From IMG/VR virus record IMGVR_UViG_3300012080_000002: a DNA stretch of 45,761 nt; one strand, 5' to 3'. The translations under genes were made by a program, and so were the position numbers. The notes below the pieces were generated by a model. It was given only the letters and a program-made list of their open reading frames with translations, was not told the origin of the DNA and did not search any database. Within the stretch, counting starts at the first letter, position 1; each line of letters opens with the position of its first letter. The DNA is from a virus. Below are positions 1 to 45,761 of the stretch, piece by piece.

Positions 1-63
1 ACGCTATAATGTAGGACGAGGTGAAGAAAATGTTTGTGAGTGAAAAACAGATTGAGATTCGAT
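1..63 (+). repeat. attL: left copy of the direct repeat flanking the prophage
   Basis: nt 1-63 are identical to nt 45699-45761. The window end cuts off the comparison, so the true core may be longer. Confidence 0.9.
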
Positions 64-4810: not shown

Positions 4811-5104
4811 ATGGGGGCATTATCACTGGATTTTACAAAAGTATTAAAGAAGTTTCGTGAAGAAGCAAAGATTTCTCAAGAGGAAATGGCACACGAACTT
4901 AATATAACGCAATCGCATGTTAGTAAATACGAATGTGGCCGAAAGGTAATAGACCTAGAAACATTTATGCGCTGGGTGCAGATAACAAATTGTGAAGTGC
5001 AGGCAGCAGCAATTTTATTCGGTACTGAGGTATGTGCTCAAGCAATTCACCTTATGCAAACAATACCTATGTTTATTGGAGGATTATTTAGTTGGATGCT
5101 TTAG
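4811..5104 (+). CDS. XRE-family HTH protein
   Basis: ISQEEMAHELNITQSHVSKYECGRK helix-turn-helix. Confidence 0.7.
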   Translation: MGALSLDFTKVLKKFREEAKISQEEMAHELNITQSHVSKYECGRKVIDLETFMRWVQITNCEVQAAAILFGTEVCAQAIHLMQTIPMFIGGLFSWML

Positions 5105-5349
5105 AAAAACTGAATCAACAGATTAATAGAGAGTTAACATGTATCGATGATCTAACAACTGAAATCAAAATGCTTGCTCGAAAAGGTCAAATCAACTTAG
5201 CGAAACAACGAGAACAAGACCTACATAATTCATTGGATCAACTAGAAAAACATCATAGACGCAGTAAATTATGGTCGACAGCTGCAGACTTAAAACTTCA
5301 AGTGAAAAAAGCGAAAGTGGTGAAGAAGGTTGTGGAAATGGCTAGATAA
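5092..5349 (+). CDS. hypothetical coiled-coil protein
   Basis: ORF overlaps the upstream gene. No motif recognised. Confidence 0.5.
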   Translation: MDALEKLNQQINRELTCIDDLTTEIKMLARKGQINLAKQREQDLHNSLDQLEKHHRRSKLWSTAADLKLQVKKAKVVKKVVEMAR

Positions 5350-5374
5350 CTATTTTTACTTACCAGAGGATGAG

Positions 5375-5464
5375 ATGCCGGAGTCACATAGAAAGTTTTG
5401 CGTAGGTGCAGCGCTAACGATGTTAGTCATTGGTGTACTAGTAATTATTGCTTGTTGGCAATAA
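5375..5464 (+). CDS. possible 29-aa single-TM peptide
   Basis: MPESHRKFCVGAALTMLVIGVLVIIACWQ follows a GAGGA RBS. A GCTGCTTAATCA/TGATTAAACAGC hairpin follows it. Confidence 0.3.
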   Translation: MPESHRKFCVGAALTMLVIGVLVIIACWQ

Positions 5465-5565
5465 AAAAGCTGCTTAATCATTGGAGTGATTAAACAGCAG
5501 TACGGTTTATGTCTACCTACATTATAACACAAAATCAGACGTTTGCGAGTCGAAACTCGCTCTCG

Positions 5566-5625
5566 TCAAGCAGCTTGTAAATGGTTGGTTAGCCTTTTCC
5601 TCTATGGAATTTACAAGTTGCTTGA
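5566..5625. repeat. 17-bp inverted repeat (16/17 matched) with a 26-nt spacer
   Basis: TCAAGCAGCTTGTAAAT (5566-5582) pairs with ATTTACAAGTTGCTTGA (5609-5625). Confidence 0.7.
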
Positions 5626-5660
5626 TGGGAAAAGCCATCAGAAAGAAGGTGAGTTGCTAA

Positions 5661-5873
5661 ATGAATAATATTGCACCGTTTAAAAACAAGATACCTGATG
5701 TTCGTATTGAAACAGAAGAGTTTGAAGAACGCTTCAGCGAGTATGACATCATTAGTCAATTCAACGGAATCATTCTTACACTAGTTGCTGTTGAAAATAA
5801 TGTCCGTTATACATCATATGTAACAGCATCCTACGCAGAATTTTTACGCAAACAGAAGGAGGCAATAGCGTGA
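5661..5873 (+). CDS. hypothetical protein
   Basis: ORF with an AAGGTGAG RBS. Confidence 0.5.
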   Translation: MNNIAPFKNKIPDVRIETEEFEERFSEYDIISQFNGIILTLVAVENNVRYTSYVTASYAEFLRKQKEAIA

Positions 5874-6091
5874 ACTTATTATTAGAAAATCCAATGGTGT
5901 TAGGCACTATAGAGCAAGTAAATCATGTACCCACATTTCGTTATATAGAAGATTTTAGGGATCTATACGGTTCTCTAATCGTTAGCAACGATGATTATAT
6001 GAAATTCCCTAATGGTGATGTAGTGCATTTTGACAACATTCACACGTATTTAGAAACGTATTTCGGTGCGGCATTTTGTACAAAAAAATAA
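5870..6091 (+). CDS. hypothetical protein
   Basis: ORF coupled by overlap to the previous gene. Confidence 0.5.
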   Translation: MNLLLENPMVLGTIEQVNHVPTFRYIEDFRDLYGSLIVSNDDYMKFPNGDVVHFDNIHTYLETYFGAAFCTKK

Positions 6092-6164
6092 ACCACTACT
6101 CGCAATAGTGGCTTACAAAACAATATATTAGCGCTCATTATAGCGCACTACAGGAGGAATTTCA

Positions 6165-7055
6165 ATGAACAACCTTACTGAACAGTACAACAGCCCTCAA
6201 ATGGGACAACCTCAATTTCAAGGCGGAGCGCTAGCACAAGCTAGTGCTTCACGCGAAATGGAAGAAGTAAAAGGGCAAATTTTCATGGCTAAACAGTTTC
6301 CGCGCAATGTATTCCAAGCTGAACAACGCGTGTTAGATACATGTAAACGTCCAGCACTAGCTCAAACAGCAATGTACAGTTACCCAAAAGGTGGCACAAA
6401 GGTAACTGGTCCATCAATACGATTAGCAGAGGCAATTGCTCAGAACTGGGGCAACCTTTCATATGGCATTCAAGAGTTAGAACAACGTAATGGTGAATCA
6501 GTAGCCAAAGCTTTTTGTTGGGACCTTGAAACAAACGTGCGCCAAGAAAAAGTATTCACTGTAAAACATGCAATTGGAACAAAAAAAGGTTTAAAGCAAT
6601 TAACTGATCCACGTGATATTTATGAAAAGGTAGCTAACGATGGAGCGCGTCGATTACGTTCTTGCATCCTTGGAGTAATTCCAGGCGACATCGTTGATAA
6701 AGCAGTTTTACAGTGTACAGAAACACTAGCTGGTAATAGCAAAGGACCATTAAAAGACCGGATTGCTAGTATGTTAAAAGGTTTTAAAGACCATTATCGT
6801 GTTACCCAAGAAATGGTTGAAACAAAGTTCGGTTACAATGCTGATTCTTTCAGTGAGTACGATTACGTAGAACTTCTTAACATTGCCAACAGCTTAAAGG
6901 ATGGAATGTCGAAAGTAGAAGATTGGTTCCCAAAAGATGATGCGAAAAATCAATCTAGTGGCTTAGGTGATGCATATAAAGACGAGCAAAAAGCAGAGGT
7001 GAAACAAGATGCACCAAACGACATTCCGATTGAACAGTCAGAACTACCACTCTAA
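6165..7055 (+). CDS. putative recombination / single-strand annealing protein (family not assigned)
   Basis: 296 aa, immediately upstream of and overlapping a PD-(D/E)XK exonuclease gene. The call rests on position only. Confidence 0.4.
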   Translation: MNNLTEQYNSPQMGQPQFQGGALAQASASREMEEVKGQIFMAKQFPRNVFQAEQRVLDTCKRPALAQTAMYSYPKGGTKVTGPSIRLAEAIAQNWGNLSYGIQELEQRNGESVAKAFCWDLETNVRQEKVFTVKHAIGTKKGLKQLTDPRDIYEKVANDGARRLRSCILGVIPGDIVDKAVLQCTETLAGNSKGPLKDRIASMLKGFKDHYRVTQEMVETKFGYNADSFSEYDYVELLNIANSLKDGMSKVEDWFPKDDAKNQSSGLGDAYKDEQKAEVKQDAPNDIPIEQSELPL

Positions 7056-7812
7056 TGAAGCGAATCAACGCTATATGTCAGTGTCACAGTTTAAAAGTGC
7101 AATGGAATGCGAGGCTAAAGCATTTGCAGAGGTAAGGGGAGAGTTTACTCGTCCCCCCTCTACAGCACTATTGGTTGGCTCATACTTACATGCTGCCTTT
7201 GAAAGTAATGAGGCGTTTCGCGAATTTCTAGAGCAAAATCACAGCACTATCTATAACAATCGTGGAAACAAATATAAGGATTACGAGAAAGCTGATGACA
7301 TGATCGAAACGATTAAAAATGACGAGTTTTGTATGTTCGCTTTGCAAGGTGAAAAAGAAGTCATCTACACAGGTGAATTATTCGGTGTTGAGTGGAAAAT
7401 CAAAGTCGATAACATCAATCATGAGCGTGGATTTTTCAGTGATATAAAAAGTACACAGGAGCTTAAAAAGCGATACTGGAGCGAGAAATACAGCACTTGG
7501 GTTTCATTTGTACAAGCCTTTGATTATGTGCTGCAGATGTGGGTGTATCGCGAAATTATTTATCAAAATATAGGTCATTACTATGATCCATATATTGTGG
7601 CAGTAACAAAAGAATCACCGCCAGATAAAGCAGTTTTACACTTCGATACAGGGCGTTTCGACTTCGAAAAGGAATATGTCGAAACTATGTTACCAAGCAT
7701 CATAGAAGCGAAGTTAGGACATAAAAATCCACATCGTTGTGACAAGTGTGAATACTGCCGGGCTTCAAAGAAGTTAGAAGGTACATTTGAAATTGAGTAT
7801 CTACTAGATTAG
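7009..7812 (+). CDS. PD-(D/E)XK (RecE/Cas4-like, DUF3799-type) exonuclease
   Basis: N-terminal YHSNEA..MSVSQFKSAMECEAKAFAE. C-terminal cysteine cluster CDKCEYC. Confidence 0.6.
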   Translation: MHQTTFRLNSQNYHSNEANQRYMSVSQFKSAMECEAKAFAEVRGEFTRPPSTALLVGSYLHAAFESNEAFREFLEQNHSTIYNNRGNKYKDYEKADDMIETIKNDEFCMFALQGEKEVIYTGELFGVEWKIKVDNINHERGFFSDIKSTQELKKRYWSEKYSTWVSFVQAFDYVLQMWVYREIIYQNIGHYYDPYIVAVTKESPPDKAVLHFDTGRFDFEKEYVETMLPSIIEAKLGHKNPHRCDKCEYCRASKKLEGTFEIEYLLD

Positions 7813-7824
7813 GTGGTGCATTGA

Positions 7825-7998
7825 ATGAATAACGTACCGTCAAGAGTATTATTGCCTGCTTGGATATTCCAAGAGGCAAAGGATAAAGATGAAATTATAA
7901 GCCTTGTGCTCGATTACATGCGTAGATACCCGAACTATAGGGTTATGAAAGTAAGTGGCAGTTTCGCAGTTTGTGAGAGGGAGCAGGGGCTTTTATAG
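7825..7998 (+). CDS. 57-aa hypothetical protein
   Basis: ATG at 7825 lies 6 nt after an AGGTGGTG RBS. It is below the size cutoff of the ORF track. Confidence 0.45.
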   Translation: MNNVPSRVLLPAWIFQEAKDKDEIISLVLDYMRRYPNYRVMKVSGSFAVCEREQGLL

Positions 7999-8054
7999 GG
8001 CAAGATTTGTGATTAAAAATTTGAATATTGCGACATAAGGAGAGGCGAGGGCAA

Positions 8055-8981
8055 ATGGCTAAATACAGAAATGTACACACAACGTTTTGGGATGACGGCT
8101 TTGTATTGGATCTTACACCAGAGGAGAAATACTTCTATCTGTATTTGATGACTAATGGCAATACAACGCAATGCGGCATCTACGAATTACCATACAGAGT
8201 AATAGAAATGCACACAGGTTACAACAGAGAAACAGTGCAGAAGTTACTACAACGATTTGTGGAGTACGGAAAAATCACATACAACGAATCAACAAAAGAA
8301 ATCATGTTGAATAACTGGGCAAAGTACAACTTTATCAACTCGCCGAAAGTGAAAAAATGTATCGAAAAAGAGCTGCTTGCAGTGAAACATATACCGTTTG
8401 TAAGGAGCTACTTAACCTCATTGGAACAGTTAGGATACCGTATTGATACCGTATCAATACTGTTAGATGAAAAAAGTGAGCAGAAAGTACCTAACACTAG
8501 TAATGGCGAGGGTTCGATACCGTATCCAAACCCTATAGATACCCCTTGCAAAGACTATGGGGAAGAAAGAGAAGAAGAAAGAGAAGAAGAAAGAGAAGAA
8601 GAAGAAGAAAAAGAAGGAGAAAGAGAAGAAGAAAAAAAGCCAATCGGTCAGTCTGTCACTCCTTCACTAATCGATAATGATTTCTTATCAATTAAAAACT
8701 TCTTCGACCAAACGATACGAATCAGCAATTTTACAGATCATAAAAAAATGGACAACATCCTAAAACTTTACCCTGACCATTTACTAATAATCGAAGCTAT
8801 CAAGGTAACAGCGGATAAAGGTAAATCAAACATGGAATACGTTGAAGCAATTTTGCGTAATTGGCGCACTGAAAAAGGTATTAACACTTATGCAGATTGG
8901 CAGTTAAAGGAGGTTCCGCAACATGCAAGCAATAAAGGAAACAATACAGGCAATGGGTACACGGTTGAGCTGGGCTTCTGA
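8055..8981 (+). CDS. replisome organizer / DnaD-domain replication protein
   Basis: The N-terminus (YRNVHTTFWDDGFVLDLTPEEKYFYLYLMTN) is organizer-like. The C-terminus (MEYVEAILRNWRTEKGI) is DnaD-like. ATG at 8055 follows AAGGAGAGG. Confidence 0.8.
   Translation: MAKYRNVHTTFWDDGFVLDLTPEEKYFYLYLMTNGNTTQCGIYELPYRVIEMHTGYNRETVQKLLQRFVEYGKITYNESTKEIMLNNWAKYNFINSPKVKKCIEKELLAVKHIPFVRSYLTSLEQLGYRIDTVSILLDEKSEQKVPNTSNGEGSIPYPNPIDTPCKDYGEEREEEREEEREEEEEKEGEREEEKKPIGQSVTPSLIDNDFLSIKNFFDQTIRISNFTDHKKMDNILKLYPDHLLIIEAIKVTADKGKSNMEYVEAILRNWRTEKGINTYADWQLKEVPQHASNKGNNTGNGYTVELGF
8562..8633 (+). repeat. tandem 12-bp repeats GAAGAAAGAGAA (3 exact copies plus degenerate copies) inside the organizer gene
   Basis: They encode the EEREEEREEEREEEEEKEGEREEE linker. 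Confidence 0.9.
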
Positions 8982-9762
8982 TAAGCATTGCTTTAAGCAT
9001 GACAAAGAGAAGTTTACAACAGGCGTCAGAATGCTAGAAAGACAAAAAGGTTCAGGAGAATTTGAGTGTCCTATGTGCTTTAGAGAAGGTAACAACAACG
9101 TTTTAGAAAAACAATATTCTGAACTAAAAAAAGAACAAGAGCGTATGGCAAAATTCAACACCCTTCAAAAGCGAAGCATTGTTCCTGATAAAACAATTTT
9201 GGATGCACGTTTTAACACTTATCAATTAAAAGAAGATGAACACGAAGCACGCCAAAATGCTCGTCTAATGACGCAATATGCAGATGAAATTATTAGCGGA
9301 CAAGTATTCAATATCTTCCTTAACGGAACACCAGGTGTTGGTAAATCACATTTAAGCTACAGCTTGCTGCATCGTGTAAATAACAACAGTAACAAAGAAA
9401 TGTCGTGCTTATTCATTGATTTTGACCAAATGTTACGCGAAATACGCGGGTCATTTAAAAATCCAGATAGTAAATATACTGAGTTTTACTTCACTGATCT
9501 ACTTAGTAAGGTGGATGTTCTTGTTTTGGATGACCTAGGGGCTGAGGTTGGTAATGAAGATACTGACAAGAAAGCATCTGACTTTATAGGGCGCATGCTA
9601 AGAGCCATTTCGAATGCGCGGCAAGATAAAGTGACCATCGTTACGACGAACTTGTCAGGGGCCAAGCTGAACACTATTTACGACAGCAAGACTCTATCAA
9701 GGTTAAACGTTGTTCTCTTTAAGGAGACTAAGGATAAACGCAGTGTAGATTTAGGATTTTAG
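8923..9762 (+). CDS. DnaC/IstB-like AAA+ helicase loader
   Basis: Walker A GTPGVGKSH and Walker B VLVLDDLG. AAGGAGG RBS. Confidence 0.85.
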   Translation: MQAIKETIQAMGTRLSWASDKHCFKHDKEKFTTGVRMLERQKGSGEFECPMCFREGNNNVLEKQYSELKKEQERMAKFNTLQKRSIVPDKTILDARFNTYQLKEDEHEARQNARLMTQYADEIISGQVFNIFLNGTPGVGKSHLSYSLLHRVNNNSNKEMSCLFIDFDQMLREIRGSFKNPDSKYTEFYFTDLLSKVDVLVLDDLGAEVGNEDTDKKASDFIGRMLRAISNARQDKVTIVTTNLSGAKLNTIYDSKTLSRLNVVLFKETKDKRSVDLGF

Positions 9763-9953: not shown

Positions 9954-10474
9954 ACACAGAACAGTTACAGGTCATTAAAGAACGTGTGGCAAAGGCTACA
10001 CCAGGGCCTTGGGAAAGTGAAGAGACAACAGAAGGGCATATCGATATATTCAATCCTAATCAAGACTATGCCATTTGCCAAACAGGTAATGAAACATACG
10101 ATTGCTTAAATGATGGTGATACAGAATTTATTAAACATGCTATTACAGATGTACCAGCACTTGTTGCTGAGGTTGAACGATTAAAAATTGAACTTGATGC
10201 TGCGTGTATTGCGAATAACACTTTAAAAAGCGAAAAGGAAGCACTTGAATTTCAACTGAAAGTATCCATCCGGCATGCTGAGGAGCTAGATGAAGAACTA
10301 GAAGCCGAGGTTGCTGAAAACGAACTGTTACGTGAAGCGCTTGAGTTTTATGCAAAAAACTCTAACTACTTAATTGAATGGAGCGACAAATGTGACGAAT
10401 ACATGCCGTCAGTCGCTGACAATGATGGTGGAGAAATCGCAAGTCAAGCACTAGGGGGTGAAGCTCATGACTGA
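9950..10474 (+). CDS. hypothetical protein, possibly Ead/Ea22-like
   Basis: An ATPGPW motif near the N-terminus and a coiled-coil C-terminus. Confidence 0.4.
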   Translation: MNTEQLQVIKERVAKATPGPWESEETTEGHIDIFNPNQDYAICQTGNETYDCLNDGDTEFIKHAITDVPALVAEVERLKIELDAACIANNTLKSEKEALEFQLKVSIRHAEELDEELEAEVAENELLREALEFYAKNSNYLIEWSDKCDEYMPSVADNDGGEIASQALGGEAHD

Positions 10475-10655
10475 ACAATTTCTAATTGATCAAATCATTT
10501 TATATCTAGGCACATTTCAACGTTTCGGTGGTGAGCATAACGAAACATTAGCTTACAAACGTCTAGAGCAATTGCGAGTGCTTAAAGGGTTAAAGGATGC
10601 TGACGAGGCTACGGATTACCTCATTATGAAAATGGAAGGGGCTATGGCTGCATGA
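10467..10655 (+). CDS. hypothetical protein
   Basis: ATG at 10467 follows a GGGGGTGA RBS. Confidence 0.45.
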   Translation: MTEQFLIDQIILYLGTFQRFGGEHNETLAYKRLEQLRVLKGLKDADEATDYLIMKMEGAMAA

Positions 10656-11044
10656 GTAGAGAGATTAAGTTTCGAGCATGGATTGATAATGAATTATTAT
10701 CACACGAACAATTGATTGATATGGATCAAGAAACACATGCAATGTACACGATAGTTACAAACGAGGAAAAAGAAGATGGTGTATCTCTCATGCAATACAC
10801 AGGCTTAAAGGACACTAACGGCAAGGATATTTATGAAGGTGATGTTGTTGATTATTTAGGTGATATCGAACTAGTTAACAGCAATGTATTACGTGTTATC
10901 GAATACAAAAACGAGGAAGCTTGTTTTGTAGCTAGATTACCAGTAGGTGTTGAAGGTGAGGAAGCTGTTTACTTGAACGAACATGATTTCAAAGTCATCG
11001 GCAACATTTACGATAATCCTGAACTAGTGGGGGAAATAGCATGA
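10652..11044 (+). CDS. YopX-family protein
   Basis: IKFRAW...[19 protein letters not shown]...[11 protein letters not shown]. Confidence 0.85.
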
Positions 11045-11550
11045 TAAACCGAGTCGTATTAGTCGGTAGGCTTACAAAAGATCCTGAATTACGCTACACA
11101 CCGAACGGTATTGCATCTTGTCGCTTTACAGTGGCCGTCAACCGTACATTCAAAGGGCAGAATGGTGAACCGGAAGCAGACTTCATTAGTTGTGTAGCTT
11201 GGCGTAAACAAGCCGAGAATTTGGCCAACTTCATGAAGAAAGCTAGCTTAATAGGTTTGGAAGGGCGAATCCAAACCGGCAGCTATGAGGGGCAGGATGG
11301 TAAGCGTGTATATACGACTGACGTTGTAGCCGACAGCATCCAATTCTTAGAGCCAAGAAACAGCACAGAAGGCGCACAGAACACGCTAAACTATCAATCT
11401 AGTACAAATACAGGTGGAACGAATCAAATCCCACCACAGGGCAATTATTGCGGTAATAATAACCAGCTAAGTTATACGAGAGTGGATGAAGATCCATTTG
11501 CTAATAGTAAGGGGCCGATTGAGGTTAGTGAGGACGATTTACCATTTTGA
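11041..11550 (+). CDS. ssb: single-stranded DNA-binding protein
   Basis: [25 protein letters not shown]-fold signature and an acidic DDLPF tail. Confidence 0.95.
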
Positions 11551-13800: not shown

Positions 13801-13806
13801 AAAATT

Positions 13807-13933
13807 GAGGGAGGTAGTGACTGTCAACTAGCGCCACAACCAAATAAGTGCGTGCGATACACTCAATGTTAAAATGTGCAGATTTAAGTTACCTATACAT
13901 TAAAAAAGCCGCAGCGTTTGCAGACGCTACAAC
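13807..13933 (-). repeat. X-element copy A (about 127-bp interspersed repeat)
   Basis: Aligns by eye with 15734-15860 and 17392-17518. Shared blocks are GAGG.AGG, GTGAC(G/T)GTCAAC, GCCACAACC and TATACATTA(A)AAAGCCG. Confidence 0.8.
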
Positions 13934-14043
13934 AATATTAAAAAAATATGTAGATAACTGCTAAGAATCAAAATAAAACGGGTTTTCAGCCAGCTTTACG
14001 CTGGAAGTATCTTAGCAGTTATACAACCACTATTTACAAATTG
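13902..14043 (-). repeat. Y-element copy A: terminator plus long hairpin (candidate small RNA on the minus strand)
   Basis: Shares flanks and the ATAACTGCTAAG/CTTAGCAGTTAT stem (13954-13965 / 14011-14022) with 15161-15298. Confidence 0.6.
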
Positions 14044-15121: not shown

Positions 15122-15150
15122 AGCAATACCTCATTATGTATTTTGTGTAA

Positions 15151-15159
15151 ATTATAACA
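15151..15159 (-). promoter_or_regulatory. extended -10 promoter TGtTATAAT (minus strand)
   Basis: Plus-strand ATTATAACA at 15151-15159, about 30 nt upstream of the ATG at 15121. Confidence 0.55.
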
Positions 15160-15160
15160 T

Positions 15161-15298
15161 AAAAAAGCCGCAGAGTTTGCAGACGCTACAGCATTATTAA
15201 AAAATATGTAGATAACTGCTATGACTGAAATCGGCGGTTCGTAATCATCAAAATGTTAGAAGAATTCATAGCAGTTAGAAGTATCATTTACAAAATTG
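15161..15298 (-). repeat. Y-element copy B
   Basis: The terminator stem is GCCGCAGAGT/ACGCTACAGC. The long hairpin is ATAACTGCTATG/CATAGCAGTTA (15212-15223 / 15267-15277). Both stem arms differ from copy A in a compensatory way. Confidence 0.6.
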
Positions 15299-15595: not shown

Positions 15596-15733
15596 AAATG
15601 GTAACTAAATCCTATCAAGGAGCTAATGGGAAGTGCCATTATGGGATTAGCTGGGGTGATTTTTCTCTAGCATAAACAGTACAGTTTATTCTATGTATTA
15701 AAAAGCATGGGATTAGGCGATTGTTTGAAAAAA

Positions 15734-15860
15734 GAAGGAGGCCGTGACGGTCAACCAACGCCACAACCTTTAAGATGTGTGTGATACACAAAAATACTTT
15801 GTGAAGATTAAGGATTATTATACATTATAAAAGCCGAAACGTGATTAACTTTACAGCTAC
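15734..15860 (-). repeat. X-element copy C (its terminator part is degenerate)
   Basis: GAAGGAGGCCGTGACGGTCAACCAACGCCACAACC... aligns with copies A and D. Confidence 0.75.
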
Positions 15861-17272: not shown

Positions 17273-17391
17273 AATTACACATCCTTTTCTGTTTTTATTG
17301 CTATTTTTCAAACAAGGATAGTATGGTTGAAATTAAAAAATTAATTCAAAAAAATAAGGATTCAGCAATATGAGGAAAAATTGAAATAAAT

Positions 17392-17518
17392 GAGGGAGTT
17401 CGTGACGGTCAACCAATGCTATAACCTAAAATGTGCGGGCGACACACTCAATAATAATTTGCGCAGATAAAAGTCACTTATACATTAAAAAAGCCGCAGC
17501 GTCGTAACACGCTACAGC
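17392..17518 (-). repeat. X-element copy D, including a terminator hairpin (17487-17518)
   Basis: GAGGGAGTTCGTGACGGTCAACCAATGCTATAACC...TATACATTAAAAAAGCCGCAGCGT-cgtaac-ACGCTACAGC. Confidence 0.8.
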
Positions 17519-17587
17519 TCGAATTGGTTTATGCCCTTTTGAATAATGGCTTAGTCATACAAGCATTATATCATAGGGGGCAAAACT

Positions 17588-18846: not shown

Positions 18847-18900
18847 TGTTCCAAATGTTACAAATGTGCCAAGTGTTACAAATGTTCCAGATGTTCCAAA
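18847..18900. repeat. six tandem 9-bp repeats of consensus TGTTNCAAA
   Basis: TGTTCCAAA TGTTACAAA TGTGCCAAG TGTTACAAA TGTTCCAGA TGTTCCAAA. No startable ORF covers them on either strand. Confidence 0.9.
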
Positions 18901-20722: not shown

Positions 20723-21226
20723 GTGATGCCATTGATTGAAAGTAAATTAACAGTAAAACAACAAGCGTTTGCTGATTTCTATATTGAGCTAGGGAATGCC
20801 ACAGAAGCTTATTTAAAGGCATATCCGAATGTTAAGAAGGAAGCGACAGCGAGGGCAGCGGGAAGTCGAATGTTAACAAATGTTAGCGTGAAAGCTTATA
20901 TAGAAAATCGCATGGAGGAATTAAAAACAGAGCGAGTAGCAGATCAGCAAGAAATATTAGAATTGCTAACGGCTATTGCAAGGGGCGAGACAACTTCGGC
21001 AACTTTACGTGGTATTGGTGAAGGTGCACAAACAATAGATGAAGATATGCCTCCTACTACTGCCGAACGTATTAAAGCTGCTGAATTACTTGGCAAACGT
21101 TTCAGTATGTGGACGGACAAACAACAGGTTGATGTCAATGGTTCCGTTACTACTAAAGTAGATTTCAGCGGATTAACCACAGAGGAGTTGAGAGCAATTG
21201 CCAACTCTAAGCAAAGAGAAGATTGA
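20723..21226 (+). CDS. terS: terminase small subunit
   Basis: LTVKQQAFADFYIELGNATEAYLKAYP is typical of the Terminase_2 family. The exact start (20723, 20726 or 20732) is uncertain. Confidence 0.8.
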   Translation: MMPLIESKLTVKQQAFADFYIELGNATEAYLKAYPNVKKEATARAAGSRMLTNVSVKAYIENRMEELKTERVADQQEILELLTAIARGETTSATLRGIGEGAQTIDEDMPPTTAERIKAAELLGKRFSMWTDKQQVDVNGSVTTKVDFSGLTTEELRAIANSKQRED

Positions 21227-22658
21227 TGCCTTAGCTATAGAAGCTAGAAAAGAGCTTGCTCGTCGCTCTTATCATGATTATGTGGAATATGTACATCATG
21301 GTCATTATCAGCATTATCCTCACACAAAAATCGTTTGTGATGAATTACAGAGAATAGCTGATGGGAAGCAAAAGTTTATTCTAATCGAAATGCCACCTCG
21401 TCATGGCAAGTCAATGACAGTAACTGAATCTTTCCCAAGCTACTATATCGGTCGTAACCCAGATAAACGAGTTATTACTGCTGCATATTCTGACGGATTA
21501 GCTACTAAGTTCGGGCGTATGAATCGTAATAAGTTCAATGAATTTGCGCCTGAACTATTTGACATAAAGTTATCTGAGGCGAATGCAGCTAATAAAGATT
21601 GGGGTGTGTCAGAACGGCGCGGTGGAATGATTAGTACAGGAATTGGAGGTTCTATTACTGGTCAAGGTGCAGACTTGATGATTATTGATGACCCTATCAA
21701 AAATATGAAAGAAGCAAGCTCGCAGTTAATCCGAGATAATATTTGGGATGAATGGGAAGCAACTCTTTCTACACGTTTACATGATGGTGCGTCTGTTATT
21801 GTCATTATGACACGCTGGCATGAAGATGACCTAATTGGTCGCTTACTTGTACGTAGCCCTCGTAATTGGGTTCGGTTACGTTTGCCAGCATTAGCAGAAG
21901 ATGAAGATGATTTGCTAGGACGTGCTCCTGGCGAACCATTATGTCGGGAATTAGGTTTTGATGAGCAATGGGCTGCGGATAAAAAAGCAGAGGTTGGTAG
22001 TCGTACATGGAATGCATTATACCAACAAAGACCTTCACCAGCGGGTGGTTCCATCTTCAAGCGTGAATGGATACGGTATTTTGTCCGAACCGAGGAACAA
22101 AAGCGAGAGTGGGGCTTAAGTGATGACGTTGTAGTGTTACCTATTCATTTTGATAAGATGGCGCAATCATGGGATTGTACATTTAAAGGTACTGATACAA
22201 GCGACTTTGTAGCTGGTGGCGTTTGGGCAAGGAAGAAAGCTCAATACTTCTTACTGGATATTGACCACAGGCGCATGGGCTTTGCTGATACGATGAAAGC
22301 TATTCGCGCAATGTCTGATAAGTGGCCTAACGCACGAAGTAAATATATTGAGGATAAAGCAAACGGTTCAGCTATAATCGAAATGTTAAAAGATGAGATT
22401 AGTGGAATCGTTCCGGTTGATCCCGAAGGTGGTAAGGAGGCACGTGCAAATGCGGTGTCTCCTTTATTTGAGTCTGGAAACGTTTATCTACCGCATCCAA
22501 ATATGTGCTCATGGGTTGAGGACTTAGAAGAGGAACTTGTTTCCTTCCCTAACGCTGCACATGATGACTTAGTGGATATGACAACCCAAGCATTGAATCA
22601 GCTTTATACAAATAACGCTAATCCACTAGATCGTTATCAAAGGTTATTAGGAAGGTAG
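21198..22658 (+). CDS. terL: terminase large subunit
   Basis: P-loop PRHGKS, Walker B LMIIDDP and MTRWHEDD motifs. Confidence 0.9.
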   Translation: MPTLSKEKIDALAIEARKELARRSYHDYVEYVHHGHYQHYPHTKIVCDELQRIADGKQKFILIEMPPRHGKSMTVTESFPSYYIGRNPDKRVITAAYSDGLATKFGRMNRNKFNEFAPELFDIKLSEANAANKDWGVSERRGGMISTGIGGSITGQGADLMIIDDPIKNMKEASSQLIRDNIWDEWEATLSTRLHDGASVIVIMTRWHEDDLIGRLLVRSPRNWVRLRLPALAEDEDDLLGRAPGEPLCRELGFDEQWAADKKAEVGSRTWNALYQQRPSPAGGSIFKREWIRYFVRTEEQKREWGLSDDVVVLPIHFDKMAQSWDCTFKGTDTSDFVAGGVWARKKAQYFLLDIDHRRMGFADTMKAIRAMSDKWPNARSKYIEDKANGSAIIEMLKDEISGIVPVDPEGGKEARANAVSPLFESGNVYLPHPNMCSWVEDLEEELVSFPNAAHDDLVDMTTQALNQLYTNNANPLDRYQRLLGR

Positions 22659-40714: not shown

Positions 40715-41005
40715 ATGGATGTAGCTGCAGTAAATGAAATTGCTACAAGCCAAGCAGTTTGGGCAATAGCTTGTTTAATCATAGCTTTTGGAGCATTTCG
40801 TTATTTAATTAGTAAGAACGATAATTTGATGAACCGAGCAGAAGAACGCGAAAACAAATTAATGGACCACTTAGAACGGTCTAATGAATCACAAGAAAAA
40901 ACCGCAATAGCTTTGGAAGGAATTAATCGAAATATAACCGTTTTAGAAGGTCGTATGGATCGCATGGAAAAATACAATTACAAAAAAGAAAAGGATGATG
41001 AATAA
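40715..41005 (+). CDS. BhlA/UviB-family holin-like protein
   Basis: An N-terminal TM helix followed by a charged coiled coil, directly upstream of the holin and endolysin genes. Confidence 0.55.
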   Translation: MDVAAVNEIATSQAVWAIACLIIAFGAFRYLISKNDNLMNRAEERENKLMDHLERSNESQEKTAIALEGINRNITVLEGRMDRMEKYNYKKEKDDE

Positions 41006-41271
41006 TGGATTTAACAAACATTTTTATGATTGCAATGGTGATGGTGGCTATCGTTTTAGCCGTATCAGAAGTACTAAAAAATACTTTTAAAATTAATACT
41101 CAATACATGCCTATCACATCGGTAGTGATTGGTATTTTTATTGGCTTAGTTTGTTGGCCGTTATCAGAGTATCCACCATATGTGATGTTGATGGCTGGCT
41201 TTGTGGCCGGGCTTACTGCTTCGGGAACGTTCGATTTATTAAAAGTTGCTAAAAAGGAAGGTGAGCAATAA
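41005..41271 (+). CDS. holin
   Basis: 88 aa with 2-3 TM helices and a charged C-terminus. Coupled to the endolysin gene. Confidence 0.7.
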   Translation: MDLTNIFMIAMVMVAIVLAVSEVLKNTFKINTQYMPITSVVIGIFIGLVCWPLSEYPPYVMLMAGFVAGLTASGTFDLLKVAKKEGEQ

Positions 41272-42011
41272 TGGTAACAATTCGTAAAAAGTTAGTATCT
41301 GATGAACAGGCTGCAAAGGTTACAAACGGTAAAGGAAATACTAAAAGAAAAGTAGTTGTACATGGCACTGACAATTATCGTACTGGGGCTGATGCTGATG
41401 CGCATGCACGTTTACAAGCAAATGGTAACAGTCGTTCTGCTTCCTGGCATTGGCAAGTAGATGATAAAGAAGCCGTACAATCCTTTGAACATACATGGAA
41501 ATGTTGGGCTGCAGGTACAGCGAAAGGCAATACAGAGGGCATCCATGTAGAAATGTGTGTGAATGGTGATGGCAACTATAGCAAAACATTAGAAAATACT
41601 GCTGCGTTAGTTGTTAAAATATTAAAAGACGAGGGACTTAGTATTAATGATGTGGTGCAACACAATTATTACAGTGGTAAAAACTGTCCTCGTGAAATCC
41701 GTGCAGGCAATGTGGCTTGGGCTAATTTTTTACAATTGGTTAAAAGCGGTGGGGATGTACAGCAACCTAAACCGGTTACTGACACTAATAAGTATCGTGT
41801 TTTAACAGGCACATACAGTACAATTCAAGCCGCCGAAAACGTACTTGATGTAATAAAGCACCGTTTTGGTTGGGTGGCATATATCGTACAAGACGGCCAG
41901 TTATGGCGTGTTAGAACTGGAACATTTACAGGCGCTGTAGCTGCTAAAGAAGGGGCTAATAAAATAAAGACAGCAAAACTTGCATTAGTTGCAAATGTTG
42001 TATGTGCTTAA
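41271..42011 (+). CDS. N-acetylmuramoyl-L-alanine amidase endolysin (Amidase_2/PGRP) with a SPOR-like C-terminal domain
   Basis: VVVHGTDN...SWHWQVDD...GIHVEMC...NCPREIR motifs. C-terminal YRVLTGTY...WRVRTGTF. Confidence 0.85.
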   Translation: MVTIRKKLVSDEQAAKVTNGKGNTKRKVVVHGTDNYRTGADADAHARLQANGNSRSASWHWQVDDKEAVQSFEHTWKCWAAGTAKGNTEGIHVEMCVNGDGNYSKTLENTAALVVKILKDEGLSINDVVQHNYYSGKNCPREIRAGNVAWANFLQLVKSGGDVQQPKPVTDTNKYRVLTGTYSTIQAAENVLDVIKHRFGWVAYIVQDGQLWRVRTGTFTGAVAAKEGANKIKTAKLALVANVVCA

Positions 42012-42013
42012 TC

Positions 42014-42060
42014 AAAAAAGGACCAAGACAGTTTGTTCTGTCTTGGTCAAGTTTAGTTTT
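42014..42060. terminator. bidirectional terminator between convergent genes
   Basis: Perfect 11-bp stem GACCAAGACAG/CTGTCTTGGTC, flanked by an A-run and a T-run. Confidence 0.8.
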
Positions 42061-43707
42061 TTATTTTAGTATCCATCTTCTAATATTTAAGATAATAATT
42101 AAAATTATCAGTACTCCCCAAACTACTAAAGAATAAAATATATAATTAGGATTTTCTTTGCCTAAAATAGTTTTAAAGATATTTAATATACCTGTAAAAC
42201 CTAATACAATTGTTAAAATCGAACTTATGGTTAACAACAATAATTCATTTGCATTCTTTTTTTCATCTTTAATAATTTGAATGTCATCCTTAAATAATTT
42301 TAAAAAATTCTCAGCTTTTTCTTCTAAATCATTTATATTACATCTCTCTAAAATACGTTCGTAAAGGGTTTTAGGACTCCCATCCGTAAAGAAAATTACA
42401 TCACTATCATAATTAAACTTTATTGTATTTAGTTGCTTTATCATTCGGTTGTACTCATCAATAGTTCTATATTCTGATTCACTAATTTGATTTAGTAAAT
42501 CCTTTAGAAAATACTTTTTAACAAATGACATTTCGTAAAACTTCATAAAATTTAAATTAGCAACAAGGAAATATATTGAAGCTGACCTTTTATATTCATC
42601 CTTATAATAAGGTGAAGTTTTTAATTCCGCTATATCCTGTTCAATAATATTAGCCATTCTTTCACTTCTAAGTGTGAAAACAGAACTAAATGAATTGCAG
42701 TAAAAAGAAAGATCTTTATCACTTCGGATTTTAGAACTTTGAATTTCTTCTTCTCTTTCTTCCCTATTTTCAGTTAACTGCTTATCAGAATTGGTTAAGA
42801 ACTGTAGTATATTAAACTTATATCTAGAATAAAATGCAGAATAATCTTTATAGGGGTTTTTAAAAGAACTAAAATCACCTATGCCCCAACTAAGGGAATT
42901 AAAATTGTCATTTGAATATAAATCCAAGTTAATTAAATTGATAATCCTTTTTTTGTATTCAACTAGGATATTATCTATGGATATATTTTCGAAGGTTTCT
43001 TCTTCCCAGAAATCATCAAACATATAATGTTTTTTATTTTTGTAAAAAGTAACTTCGTCGAAATGAATAGACCTAGGAGTTGACTCTGATAATTGTAACT
43101 GCTTATCATTGAAATCCTGAACACAAATTTGCAATGATATTATACCTTCTTTAAAAACCGTAATCATTATATAGTTTAAAATATACTCACCATTATGCTT
43201 GATTCTTAAGGGTAACAACATTCGTCTTTCTTGAGAACCGTGTCTAGCGTTCGGAGTTAAGCACATTTCCTCAATATCATAGTATGCTTTATCTACCTGA
43301 ATAGAGCAATCAAGAAGGTCTTCTTCATAAAGGTGAATATTATGATATTTAATTAATATTTTGCTCCCATTAACATAAGAGACTTCTTCTGTACTGCTTA
43401 AAGAAAAATCATCTTTTCTTAAAAAATTCTTTTTTAGATTGTTAAAGACTGTTTCATTAATTAGTTCTAAATTCACATCAAATAGATAAAATGAATCTCT
43501 CTCAGTTTTAATGCCCTCTGACATATATAATGAATTTTTATATAGTAAGTATTCTTGAAAGTCTTTATTAATATAGAAGTTTTCTGAATTATTATGAGAT
43601 ATATGAGTAAGAACAAGGTTTGTGTCATGTAATTTTTGAACAATCTGATTGTAATTCTCTGGATTGAATTTAATAATTGAATAACCGAATATGTTTTTAA
43701 AAATCAA
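42061..43707 (-). CDS. 548-aa protein of unrecognised family with a C-terminal two-TM (CorA-like) module
   Basis: TTG start 8 nt after GGAGGT. The C-terminus is NELLLLTISSILTIVLGFTGILNIF...YIFYSLVVWGVLIILIIILNIRRWILK. The gene is very AT-rich. Confidence 0.75.
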   Translation of the reverse strand: MIFKNIFGYSIIKFNPENYNQIVQKLHDTNLVLTHISHNNSENFYINKDFQEYLLYKNSLYMSEGIKTERDSFYLFDVNLELINETVFNNLKKNFLRKDDFSLSSTEEVSYVNGSKILIKYHNIHLYEEDLLDCSIQVDKAYYDIEEMCLTPNARHGSQERRMLLPLRIKHNGEYILNYIMITVFKEGIISLQICVQDFNDKQLQLSESTPRSIHFDEVTFYKNKKHYMFDDFWEEETFENISIDNILVEYKKRIINLINLDLYSNDNFNSLSWGIGDFSSFKNPYKDYSAFYSRYKFNILQFLTNSDKQLTENREEREEEIQSSKIRSDKDLSFYCNSFSSVFTLRSERMANIIEQDIAELKTSPYYKDEYKRSASIYFLVANLNFMKFYEMSFVKKYFLKDLLNQISESEYRTIDEYNRMIKQLNTIKFNYDSDVIFFTDGSPKTLYERILERCNINDLEEKAENFLKLFKDDIQIIKDEKKNANELLLLTISSILTIVLGFTGILNIFKTILGKENPNYIFYSLVVWGVLIILIIILNIRRWILK

Positions 43708-43779
43708 GTATAATTACCTCCAACAATTTAAGCAAATAATATTTGTATAGTAATTTATATAAATATAAACCATACATAT

Positions 43780-43983
43780 TCAGTAGTCGGGTCTATTTTC
43801 TTTTAAAGATTGTTTACGCTCTAAAATCAATTCCATAAACTCTTCTAAATCTTCCTCTAAAGCAGAATTTTTGATAAAACTACGTGCCCTAGATCGGGCA
43901 CTAGTATATTTTGCACGTTCTTTATTCTTTTCTTGCCAGCGCTTATTTGCTTCCGTTTGAGGATTTTTTTTCATTGTCATCAC
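43780..43983 (-). CDS. small basic helical protein
   Basis: KRWQEKNKERAKYTSARSRARSFIKN. The true start is probably one of the internal ATGs (43974-43980). Confidence 0.55.
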   Translation of the reverse strand: MMTMKKNPQTEANKRWQEKNKERAKYTSARSRARSFIKNSALEEDLEEFMELILERKQSLKENRPDY

Positions 43984-44089
43984 GTTCCTTCAATAATCTT
44001 TTTTGCTCACTTTTTAAGAAGTAACCTCTTACATATAACGCAAGCAGGGCAATAAGTAAGACGATGAGTATAATATTTAATATTTTCAT
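43943..44089 (-). CDS. possible 48-aa single-TM peptide
   Basis: MKILNIILIVLLIALLALYVRGYF... It has no clear RBS and overlaps the next ORF start. Confidence 0.3.
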   Translation of the reverse strand: MKILNIILIVLLIALLALYVRGYFLKSEQKRLLKERDDNEKKSSNGSK

Positions 44090-44123
44090 GGGCTCATGGT
44101 ATACTTTAGGAAACAAGGAGGGG

Positions 44124-44261
44124 TTAACCCCCTCTTCTTGTTCTTCTGTTTTGTAGCCTTAGTTGTTCATTTTCTAACTTCTTCTTCTGGTTGTCGAGCC
44201 ACTTGGAATGAAGTTGTAATGCAATGAACACTAGGGCTATTATTGTTCCTAAGTATTCCAC
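44124..44261 (-). CDS. 45-aa single-TM peptide
   Basis: GTG start 5 nt after GGAGGTG. MEYLGTIIALVFIALQLHSKW plus a basic tail. The stop lies inside the GAGGGGTTAACCCCCTC hairpin. Confidence 0.5.
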   Translation of the reverse strand: MEYLGTIIALVFIALQLHSKWLDNQKKKLENEQLRLQNRRTRRGG

Positions 44262-44286
44262 TGATTCACCTCCTTTCTATACTTTA

Positions 44287-44315
44287 ATTATACTAGTACT
44301 AGTATTTAAAATCAA
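44287..44315 (-). promoter_or_regulatory. consensus-like sigma-A promoter TTGATT-17-TATAAT with ACTAGTACTAGT in the spacer
   Basis: The hexamers and spacer were counted directly. It drives the minus-strand accessory operon. Confidence 0.65.
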
Positions 44316-44357: not shown

Positions 44358-44386
44358 TTGCGAAAAGAGAACGCTAGTTCTATAAT
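44358..44386 (+). promoter_or_regulatory. promoter TTGCGA-17-TATAAT overlapped by a LexA (Cheo) box GAACGCTAGTTC (44369-44380)
   Basis: The GAAC-N4-GTTC match abuts the -10 hexamer. Confidence 0.6.
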
Positions 44387-44420
44387 AAAACAAACAAACG
44401 TTCTTATTAGGAGGATTAAT

Positions 44421-44693
44421 ATGGCTGCTAAAACAAAAACACCAGCAAAAAAGAAAGAACCTAAGCATTTGGATCGTGATGAGTTCGACCTTGAAGAAAT
44501 CGCATATACTTTAACGGAATCAATGCAAGAAAATAAAATTTATACATACACAATTTACAAGCATGATGAGCTATTAGAGGGAACAGTCGTAAAAATGGAT
44601 GCAAACACTAAATTGATCCACATAAAAGACAGATATATGGGCATCCATAAGATACATTTTTTAGACATTTTAAAAGTATCTAACGTTGAATAA
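44421..44693 (+). CDS. YolD-like protein
   Basis: ATG at 44421 follows AGGAGGA. The pattern LDRDEFDLEEIAYTL...IYTYTIY...GTVVKMDANTKLIHIK...IHFLDILKV resembles the YolD-like family. Confidence 0.55.
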   Translation: MAAKTKTPAKKKEPKHLDRDEFDLEEIAYTLTESMQENKIYTYTIYKHDELLEGTVVKMDANTKLIHIKDRYMGIHKIHFLDILKVSNVE

Positions 44694-44711
44694 TTGTGGA
44701 GAGTGATTGTA

Positions 44712-44795
44712 ATGATAAATGACCGAGGAAATATTAAATGGAAAGCGATAAATCAGATAGAACATGTATTTTCCCTGGTAGACATGGATGATTAA
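44712..44795 (+). CDS. 27-codon ORF with a DRGNIKW motif
   Basis: GTGGAGAG RBS. The motif resembles YolD-family N-termini. The ORF overlaps the next gene. Confidence 0.25.
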   Translation: MINDRGNIKWKAINQIEHVFSLVDMDD

Positions 44796-45153
44796 ACCTG
44801 ATGAGCGCAGAAATGTACACCATTTTATCCTTTTGGATATGGCAGTAAAATCTTTGCAGAATGACTACGATAAACTGAAAAGCCTTAAAATGTCAGAGGT
44901 CTATATCAAAATTGTTGATGACCTATTAAAAGATATAAGAAGTGATTATTTCAACAAAAAAAGAATGTTAGCAAAACAGAAAATAGAAGTAGTGAAGTGG
45001 ATTCATATAGACGAATATTTTAGTGACGTTGTTATTAAAACGCCAGGAGAAGATGTTGTATTGAGGTACGCAAAACAAGCATTAAAAACACAAGTGGAAA
45101 ATTTGATATTTAACTACCTAAAGGAGAATTATAATGCCAATACTAAAAACTAG
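44788..45153 (+). CDS. hypothetical protein
   Basis: ORF of 121 aa. Confidence 0.5.
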   Translation: MIKPDERRNVHHFILLDMAVKSLQNDYDKLKSLKMSEVYIKIVDDLLKDIRSDYFNKKRMLAKQKIEVVKWIHIDEYFSDVVIKTPGEDVVLRYAKQALKTQVENLIFNYLKENYNANTKN

Positions 45154-45436
45154 TTCTGTTCAAATATTGTTTGGAAAAGGAGATGTAGGTGTTCGGATAG
45201 TTGGAAATAAGAAGCTAAAAACGTGTGCCATTCAATTTACCAGAATTGATCCCTTACCAATTGGCGCAGAAATAGAAAAGAGTGAAATGTTAAGTTTAAA
45301 TGATGCTCCTGTAACACTTGCCTTTAATAAAGTTGAGAGTTTAGATGTAGTAATTAACCAATTAATAAAACTAAGAAATATCATAACTGGTGAAAACGTA
45401 GAGGAAAGGTCGAACAGTGCAAGAATCGCGAAATAA
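45134..45436 (+). CDS. hypothetical protein
   Basis: AAGGAGA RBS. A terminator follows. Confidence 0.55.
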   Translation: MPILKTSSVQILFGKGDVGVRIVGNKKLKTCAIQFTRIDPLPIGAEIEKSEMLSLNDAPVTLAFNKVESLDVVINQLIKLRNIITGENVEERSNSARIAK

Positions 45437-45441
45437 AAAAA

Positions 45442-45480
45442 GTCACTCATTTGAAAAAGAAAATGAGTGACCTTTTGTTA
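45442..45480 (+). terminator. intrinsic terminator
   Basis: 11-bp stem GTCACTCATTT/AAATGAGTGAC followed by CTTTTGTT. Confidence 0.75.
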
Positions 45481-45522: not shown

Positions 45523-45553
45523 GGTACCCCACGGTACCCCAGAAAGTACCCCA
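45523..45553 (+). promoter_or_regulatory. three direct GTACCCCA repeats (putative integrase arm-type sites)
   Basis: GGTACCCCA at 45523-45531, GGTACCCCA at 45533-45541 and AAGTACCCCA at 45544-45553. The same word occurs at 183-194 near attL. Confidence 0.45.
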
Positions 45554-45698
45554 ATTAAAAGAATTAATATGAGTTGATATGGGTGCGAGATATTCGTTCG
45601 TAAAATTTATTTCTGAATTCAATATCAAAACTTTTCAACCTTCATTTTTCAACCTATCGAAATCTCTCAAGCCTAAACCCCGCGAAATCAGCATTTTT

Positions 45699-45761
45699 AC
45701 GCTATAATGTAGGACGAGGTGAAGAAAATGTTTGTGAGTGAAAAACAGATTGAGATTCGAT
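45699..45761 (+). repeat. attR: right copy of the direct repeat
   Basis: Identical to nt 1-63. Confidence 0.9.
45728..45761 (+). CDS. 5' end of the (presumably intact) thioesterase gene, continuing beyond the window
   Basis: Same ATG, RBS and codons as at 30. The frame is still open at the window end. Confidence 0.5.
   Translation, partial: MFVSEKQIEIR

Follow-up and report, generated by a model that had tools for sequence, protein, structure and literature searches.

A horizontally mobile single-gene cassette of Bacillales encoding an orphan 548-residue membrane protein of predicted CorA-like architecture, a candidate stand-alone immune channel

Channels of the CorA/MIT superfamily (T. maritima CorA, E. 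coli CorA, ZntB, CmaX; PF01544) are built from an N-terminal alpha/beta domain and long helices, a stalk continuous with the first transmembrane helix (TM1), a short outer loop and a second transmembrane helix (TM2). A member of this group is already known from immunity. Indeed, the type III CRISPR CorA effector of B. fragilis combines a CorA-type membrane domain with a larger unique cytoplasmic domain and binds SAM-AMP; it has been modelled as a pentamer, and opening of the pore on ligand binding has been postulated (PMC10600005). Its gene invariably occurs together with cas10 and with NrN or a SAM-AMP lyase, and the last 172 residues of the protein retain detectable CorA sequence similarity. 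A cytoplasmic sensing step that leads to the loss of membrane integrity, the logic proposed below, would be shared with membrane effectors of other abortive-infection systems, namely lambda RexAB, Cap15 and other two-transmembrane (2TM) effectors of CBASS and the transmembrane (TM) effectors of Pycsar. These effectors need a separate sensor or nucleotide-signal synthase, and they are small (about 200 amino acids, aa) or have their sensor as a separate protein. Here we describe a gene for a 548-aa membrane protein found in a window of 45,761 nucleotides of viral DNA (the whole stretch analysed; IMG/VR record IMGVR_UViG_3300012080_000002). An earlier interpretation made from the letters and the open reading frames (ORFs), called below the sequence-only reading, had placed this gene with three genes for small proteins in a minus-strand unit between the lysis genes and an attachment (att) site, and had suggested a defence or exclusion module with a CorA-like tail. 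All the features listed for this unit were found again at their positions in the ORF listing and in the sequence. We infer, with a probability of roughly 0.4, that the 548-aa protein is by itself an infection-gated membrane channel for abortive infection.

The comparison of loci showed that the 548-aa gene forms a cassette by itself, moving horizontally as a single gene together with its ribosome-binding site (RBS), TTG start codon and terminator. About 20 loci carrying a gene of this family (numbered with an L below) were surveyed, and an all-against-all BLAST of the neighbouring genes at 14 of them left the 548-aa gene as the only one common to all; no conserved partner (antitoxin, sensor or small peptide) was found beside it, and there is one copy per locus, without paralogues. 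About 60 nt of upstream sequence, the signal GGAGGTA-N7-TTG and a terminator hairpin travel with the gene and are kept beside three unrelated endolysins (Amidase_2, Peptidase_M15_4 and GH25). The RBS, its spacer and the TTG codon are also kept in an alignment of four loci, one of which, L001, has a different gene upstream. The gene is convergent to four unrelated lysis cassettes (in the window, L001, L002/L016 and L028), the fourth of which, facing the distant homologue P0009, is composed of an SPP1 holin, an Amidase_3 protein and XhlA. The hairpin itself (GACCAAGACAG...CTGTCTTGGTC followed by CTTTTTTGAT) has a good T-run on the minus strand and stays with the 548-aa gene beside the different endolysins; it is therefore the terminator of this gene rather than that of the endolysin, to which the sequence-only reading had assigned it. 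The composition of the gene is also distinct, as had been noticed from the letters, with a GC content of 25.9% against 35.7% in the adjoining small genes and about 38% in the late region.

The genomic contexts are those of an accessory gene, in agreement with the placement suggested beforehand. A search with a 7-sequence alignment gave 10 genome loci, and the loci surveyed belong to Bacillales (Peribacillus, Evansella, Gottfriedia, Planococcus, Rossellomorea, Fictibacillus, Bacillus and Lysinibacillus) and to metagenomic contigs; the distribution of the family is narrow, and most of its members lie outside prophages. Among the approximately 20 independent loci, 16 are informative (raw count), since the gene stands there beside defence genes, mobile-element boundaries or lysis cassettes. 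The individual neighbours, which include several known defence systems, are given in Table 1. The bracketing of one of these loci (L013) by two insertion-sequence copies looks like a composite transposon. Two copies of the gene are damaged: that of L015 has an in-frame stop before the membrane tail, and that of L007 is truncated before TM2. Such occasional inactivation fits a costly accessory gene. The recurrent placement in accessory slots and next to defence genes is, as far as genomic position can indicate a function, consistent with a role in defence or exclusion.

The protein has no relatives among described families. Nothing in Pfam, PADLOC, PHROGs or NCBIfam matched it, and the sequences of the PDB gave no match either to the single sequence or to a profile. 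A word-indexed search of 5.8 billion proteins returned eight proteins, namely the query itself, six Lysinibacillus-type relatives (70-80% identity) and one B. cereus protein (31%), and the same eight were obtained with a 29-sequence alignment. When 1.84 billion cluster representatives were searched exhaustively with an HMMER profile, 49 proteins were recovered, with 30 below 1e-30. Almost all of these have the full length (546-587 aa), and no link to another family runs through any of them. With Pfam at E ≤ 10 on all the 29 full-length members, no CorA and no family recurring in more than one member was found. As remarked in the sequence-only reading, the protein has no recognisable catalytic motif. 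Because the family is missing from Pfam, NCBIfam, PHROGs and PADLOC, it is invisible to current annotation and defence-finding pipelines.

Full-length homologues reach down to 17-30% identity, and the ratio dN/dS among the close homologues of the gene is 0.12-0.25; we therefore consider the gene as real and constrained. Purifying selection spans its whole length, including the part that encodes the large cytoplasmic domain. The 29-sequence alignment shows a single architecture throughout, with four invariant positions (N47, Y53, G188 and E392) and the conserved motifs GIITLQ, FYKxKxxYxxxDFWEK, RFYELxFIKK and GSPKxLYxxILEK. The C-terminus of the family is composed of TM1 (SSILTIVLGYxGIK), an HPLR loop motif in most members, TM2 and a basic LNI[KR]RW tail. 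A seemingly alternative C-terminal module in the member P0034 was rejected, since it proved to be the usual transmembrane tail carrying an insertion.

Hydropathy reveals only two hydrophobic segments in the 548-aa protein (residues 486-516 and 519-548). About 485 residues come first; a stalk helix then leads into TM1 (about 486-516), which a short external loop connects to TM2 (about 519-545), and the chain closes with the basic tail NIRRWILK. Basic residues border both cytoplasmic ends of the hairpin (KDEKKN... and NIRRWILK), and by the positive-inside rule both termini and the approximately 485 residues are predicted to be cytoplasmic, with only 11-25 residues of the family members exposed outside. 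TM1 carries a conserved small or polar stripe (S496, T499, G/S503, G506 and I510, with a 3-4-3-4 spacing), which would be expected for a helix that packs in, or lines, an oligomeric bundle.

An AlphaFold model built with 8 sequences was unusable (pLDDT 45), and one built with 29 sequences reached a pLDDT of 86.4 and a pTM of 0.80. The latter shows beta-rich alpha/beta subdomains in residues 1-360, long helices (368-410, 416-432 and 444-455), a 58-residue helix (458-515) entering the membrane and a second membrane helix (521-547). Searched with Foldseek against the PDB, it matched CorA-family channels at all of ranks 1 to 9 (several states of T. maritima CorA, and CmaX), with E-values down to 2e-4 and probabilities up to 0.99. 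The targets have 323-347 residues, and the alignments, of 238-407 columns (mostly 360-407), cover almost all of the CorA chain; the hits from rank 10 downwards are noise (GFP, OXA beta-lactamases). On this basis, a CorA-like architecture and topology are predicted for the 548-aa protein, which in the model has the same order of elements as the superfamily. A basic C-terminal tail is also common to both ([KR]RW in the 548-aa family, KKKWL in CorA). The two differ in size, CorA proteins having about 320-370 aa and the present protein roughly twice their cytoplasmic mass, with extra beta-rich subdomains. They also differ in setting: CorA is a housekeeping gene whose product has the GMN motif, whereas the 548-aa family lacks GMN and is found on mobile elements and in defence islands. 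The CorA-like tail suggested from the letters therefore stands as regards the two TM helices and the basic C-terminus, and the predicted structural likeness extends to the whole chain, but no relationship to CorA is detectable at the sequence level. The proposed replacement of GMN by G-I-L-N was not sustained either, as the position equated with GMN is G-[IL]-K in the family consensus and G-I-L-N is not conserved. As the defining sequence features (GMN and profile similarity) fail, we do not file the protein as a CorA member.

If the protein is indeed a stand-alone immune channel, it would assemble, probably as a pentamer like CorA, into a closed oligomeric pore, and its large cytoplasmic domain would sense a phage-derived cue or a change induced by infection. 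The pore would then open and leak ions, the membrane potential would collapse, and the infection would abort, to the benefit of the lysogen population or of the carrier of the island. In this prophage, the promoter of the small genes upstream may also supply read-through transcription of the 548-aa gene. The nearest functional precedent is the type III CRISPR CorA effector. Unlike that effector, the 548-aa family has no detectable CorA sequence similarity and stands alone: no cas gene or NrN was found near it in the approximately 20 loci (Pfam and PADLOC scans of the neighbours, in which not every ORF was scanned), and it has no conserved cas, cyclase or nuclease partner and no evident ligand-producing enzyme beside it. 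Given this lack of a signalling enzyme or conserved partner, sensing would, if the protein is immune, have to be intrinsic to it or depend on a general cellular cue. In L015, a CBASS system with Cap15 shares its neighbourhood with the family gene. The searchable literature yielded no account of a CorA-fold defence gene that stands alone, the type III CRISPR CorA being the only related case found there. We advance more tentatively the stronger proposal that this is the first stand-alone immune channel on a CorA scaffold, in which one polypeptide would sense the phage directly, open a GMN-less CorA-like oligomeric pore and kill or arrest the cell without any signalling enzyme or partner, and which would spread as a 1.75-kb cassette in prophages and defence islands of Bacillales.

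Several results weigh against an immune CorA-like channel. The link to CorA depends on one AlphaFold model and on the Foldseek matches, whose global TM-scores are low (0.17-0.30) with root-mean-square deviations of 14-21 Å; low global TM-scores are common for elongated, hinged proteins, and they leave the assignment to the CorA fold short of proven. The alignment of the family by hhalign with E. coli CorA, and with an alignment of 8 CorA sequences, gave a probability of about 0.1% in each case; a profile search of the PDB sequences with the family found no CorA; and GMN is absent from the last 130 residues of all the 29 full-length members. With regard to defence, PADLOC at E ≤ 1 recognised no family for the 548-aa, 67-aa or 45-aa products of the unit, and its match of the 57-aa peptide to a 2TM effector (E 0.006, 27 residues) is at chance level. 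No homologue of the 548-aa protein was found in 50,697 annotated phage genomes (tblastn, megablast), and nothing of the family in IMG/VR (pattern scan and 7-sequence alignment), which limits its association with prophages to a few Bacillales lineages. Four of the approximately 20 loci (L008, L011, L030 and L031) are uninformative. Finally, exclusion proteins, fitness factors and addiction toxins would be expected on mobile elements as well.

Two other explanations keep some weight, both of them unlikely. According to one, the protein is an ion or metal channel or transporter without immune function, that is, a very divergent member of the CorA superfamily which alters the cation homeostasis of the host and is carried as a fitness gene (a "moron"). 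The sole significant structural matches are indeed to CorA-family channels, CorA genes are common on plasmids, and phage proteins annotated as Mg2+ transporters exist: one of them, from Lactobacillus phage LfeInf, was at rank 4 of a structure search of BFVD in which nothing fell below E 0.07. However, several points weigh against this explanation. GMN is invariant in the control alignment of 8 CorA sequences (E. coli CorA and seven diverse plasmid-borne genes) and found in none of the 29 members of this family, whose sequences show no similarity to CorA; their periplasmic loop varies, and the cytoplasmic part is about twice that of CorA. The neighbouring genes are moreover those of defence and recombination and not of metal homeostasis.

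According to the other, which we judge just as improbable, this is a membrane protein for superinfection exclusion or lysis timing, which would block the entry of incoming phage DNA or interfere with holins without killing the cell. Its gene lies beside lysis cassettes in five prophage loci and its product, a membrane protein, is presumably expressed from the lysogen; yet the protein is predicted to be almost wholly cytoplasmic, and the few residues outside make it poorly suited for blocking injection. The gene is oriented convergently to the lysis genes, whose transcript it does not share; the cassettes it faces are mutually unrelated, and most family members lie outside prophages. The identity of a holin or antiholin was rejected in view of the length of 548 aa, the convergent orientation and the homologues outside prophages.

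It is still less probable that the gene serves mobile elements as a toxin-like factor for addiction or competition, or has some other role, its position in defence islands being incidental. This would suit the copies that border integrative elements, stand between IS110 copies or adjoin resolvases, as well as the inactivation of some of them, but no conserved small gene lies next to it as an antitoxin, each locus has one copy, and purifying selection extends over the whole length, large cytoplasmic domain included. Finally, a single defence or exclusion module made up of all four genes, with a sensor-pore protein modulated by the 45-aa, 48/57-aa and 67-aa products, is very improbable: the genes are co-directional and closely spaced behind one conserved promoter in the window, L002 and L016, and two of the small products are membrane peptides, but the trio is absent outside Lysinibacillus, a conserved hairpin follows the first peptide gene, and the 548-aa gene alone is shared by all the compared loci, with the difference of about 10% in GC content and the distribution described below also standing against this module.

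Indeed, the three small genes behave as a unit of their own. The 67-aa product corresponds to phrog_2277 over its full length (E 9.2e-24, residues 2-60 against positions 3-61 of the 62 of the profile). This family was found in 76 records of Streptococcus, Listeria, Lactobacillus and Clostridium phages, in none of which the 548-aa gene is present, and it accompanies that gene in Lysinibacillus prophages only. In L001, the trio is located 2.4 kb from the 548-aa gene, with four other genes in between. Judged by this distribution, the 67-aa protein is a common small gene product of temperate Firmicutes phages and no dedicated partner of the 548-aa protein. The three genes are a separate conserved prophage module with its own promoter and probable operator, and not components of one system as the sequence-only reading had it. 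The 45-aa peptide has a weak match to phrog_24161 and positional counterparts of 51-63 aa in L001, L002 and L016. The 57/48-aa ORF is without a clear RBS and doubtful as a gene; a membrane peptide of about 57 aa is encoded at the same position in related prophages.

The near-consensus promoter and the palindrome that had been noticed upstream of the trio have been borne out by comparison. The spacer of the promoter holds ACTAGTACTAGT, within a perfect palindrome of 14 bp (TACTAGTACTAGTA, positions 44291-44304) that overlaps the -10 element and is probably an operator. Promoter-like matches in this AT-rich stretch are not above chance (26 observed, 20.6 expected). The promoter, the palindrome and the RBS of the trio are base-for-base invariant in four diverged Lysinibacillus prophages in which the flanks vary, and we therefore regard them as real signals. 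The hairpin behind the 45-aa ORF has a compensated variant in L002 (about 9535-9550; GGAGGTTAACGCCTCC) in which the pairing is kept, and it could be an attenuator or a partial terminator within the trio. The coordinates of these features and the neighbours of the family gene at other loci are collected in Table 1.

Table 1. Features of the minus-strand unit and the att site in the window, and genes found next to the family gene at other loci (values in brackets are those of the database matches)
Locus	Feature	Coordinates	Strand	Remarks
Window	Intrinsic terminator hairpin	42021-42048	-	Accompanies the 548-aa gene
Window	548-aa ORF, orphan membrane protein	42061-43707	-	TTG start codon at 43705-43707
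Window	RBS of the 548-aa gene, GGAGGT	43716-43721	-	43705-43721 with start codon; spacer of 7-8 nt to TTG
Window	67-aa ORF, basic helical protein, phrog_2277	43780-43983	-	
Window	57-aa ORF from TTG (48 aa from internal ATG), single-TM peptide	43943-44116	-	
Window	GC-rich hairpin GAGGGGGTTAACCCCTC, weak T-tract	44118-44134	-	Directly 3' of the 45-aa ORF
Window	45-aa ORF, single-TM peptide, strongly basic tail	44124-44261	-	Strong RBS; GTG start after AAAGGAGGTGA
Window	Sigma-A-type promoter of the small-gene trio, TTGATT-17-TATAAT	44287-44315	-	10 of 12 consensus positions
Window	att core copy	45699-45761	+	Identical to window 1-63
L004, L014	Tyrosine integrases			Adjoining the family gene
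L033	Large serine recombinase of a prophage			With S24 repressor
L007, L010	Resolvases			Adjoining the family gene
L013 (Fictibacillus barbaricus)	Two near-identical IS110-family transposase genes	5231-6469, 9967-11205		One on each side of the family gene
L012	Complete Gabija			GajA (8e-269), GajB (2e-193)
L015 (Bacillus sp. BHET2)	CBASS cyclase (2e-120), Cap15-type 2TM effector (1e-57), LeoA/dynamin-like gene	4848-9656 (with the family gene)		Directly upstream of the family gene
L007	Old (4e-55)			
L010	PDC-M58A (1e-77)			
L009	Mrr-type restriction enzyme			With XPB-like helicase
L032	Type I restriction-modification			With Abi_2 and DUF4145
L029	Type I restriction-modification remnants			

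The rest of the window fits a temperate phage, with an integrase (225-1493), an ImmA/HTH pair, an antirepressor, a terminase (21198-22658) and, upstream of the unit, the lysis genes (holin, 41005-41271; Amidase_2/SPOR endolysin, 41271-42011). The two ends of the window form an exact direct repeat of 63 nt, which continues for 18 more bases in the source contig and reaches the edge of that contig. The repeat carries a promoter; it also contains the beginning of a 4HBT-type thioesterase gene, whose first 31 codons are identical to the host gene flanking the related prophage L002. Furthermore, GGGGTAC repeats flank the att core, three at 45524-45552 and one at 186-192 (regions 45524-45554 and 171-194); they are probably arm-type sites of the integrase. 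The identity of the terminal repeat, the thioesterase codons matching the host gene and the flanking repeats together make the att core copy at the window end well supported. The position of the unit between the lysis genes and an att site, as first described, is thus correct as to the att copy, but three plus-strand genes (44358-45436) intervene. These encode a YolD-like protein (PF08863), a YhjD-like protein and a phrog_31900 protein and are followed by a strong hairpin (45437-45476); YolD-like genes also border the homologous slot in L002 and L003.

Other observations concern the early part of the window. Between the integrase and the ImmA/HTH repressor pair, a minus-strand gene (1510-2301) encodes a 263-aa protein with DUF4428 and SHOCT domains; the slot between integrase and repressor pair is a classic accessory slot. 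A family of intergenic repeats of 60-130 nt occurs in the early region (13803-13945, 15142-15230, 15730-15789 and 17388-17530), with copies 68-83% alike, each with a hairpin-like core (GCCGCAGCG...CGCTAC), and these could be terminators, regulatory sites or recombination sites. Two in-frame tandem repeats were also observed, one of 12 nt and rich in GAA/AAG (8551-8634, inside the ORF 8028-8981 for a 317-aa protein) and one of 9 nt (TGTTCCAAA, 18847-18900).

The design that the 548-aa protein appears to follow is already known, both as a sensor fused to a membrane effector and as a CorA-type scaffold used in immunity. If the role in defence is true, the family would add one more single-gene system to the known defence repertoire, and immunity would have recruited the CorA scaffold on at least two occasions, in type III CRISPR as a ligand-gated effector and here as an autonomous sensor-channel. 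With a single gene, the way in which phage sensing is coupled to channel gating would then be open to direct test, and the TM1 stripe together with the four invariant cytoplasmic residues provides ready targets for mutagenesis. If the role is not in defence, these proteins still constitute a new family with a CorA-like predicted fold, carried on mobile elements.

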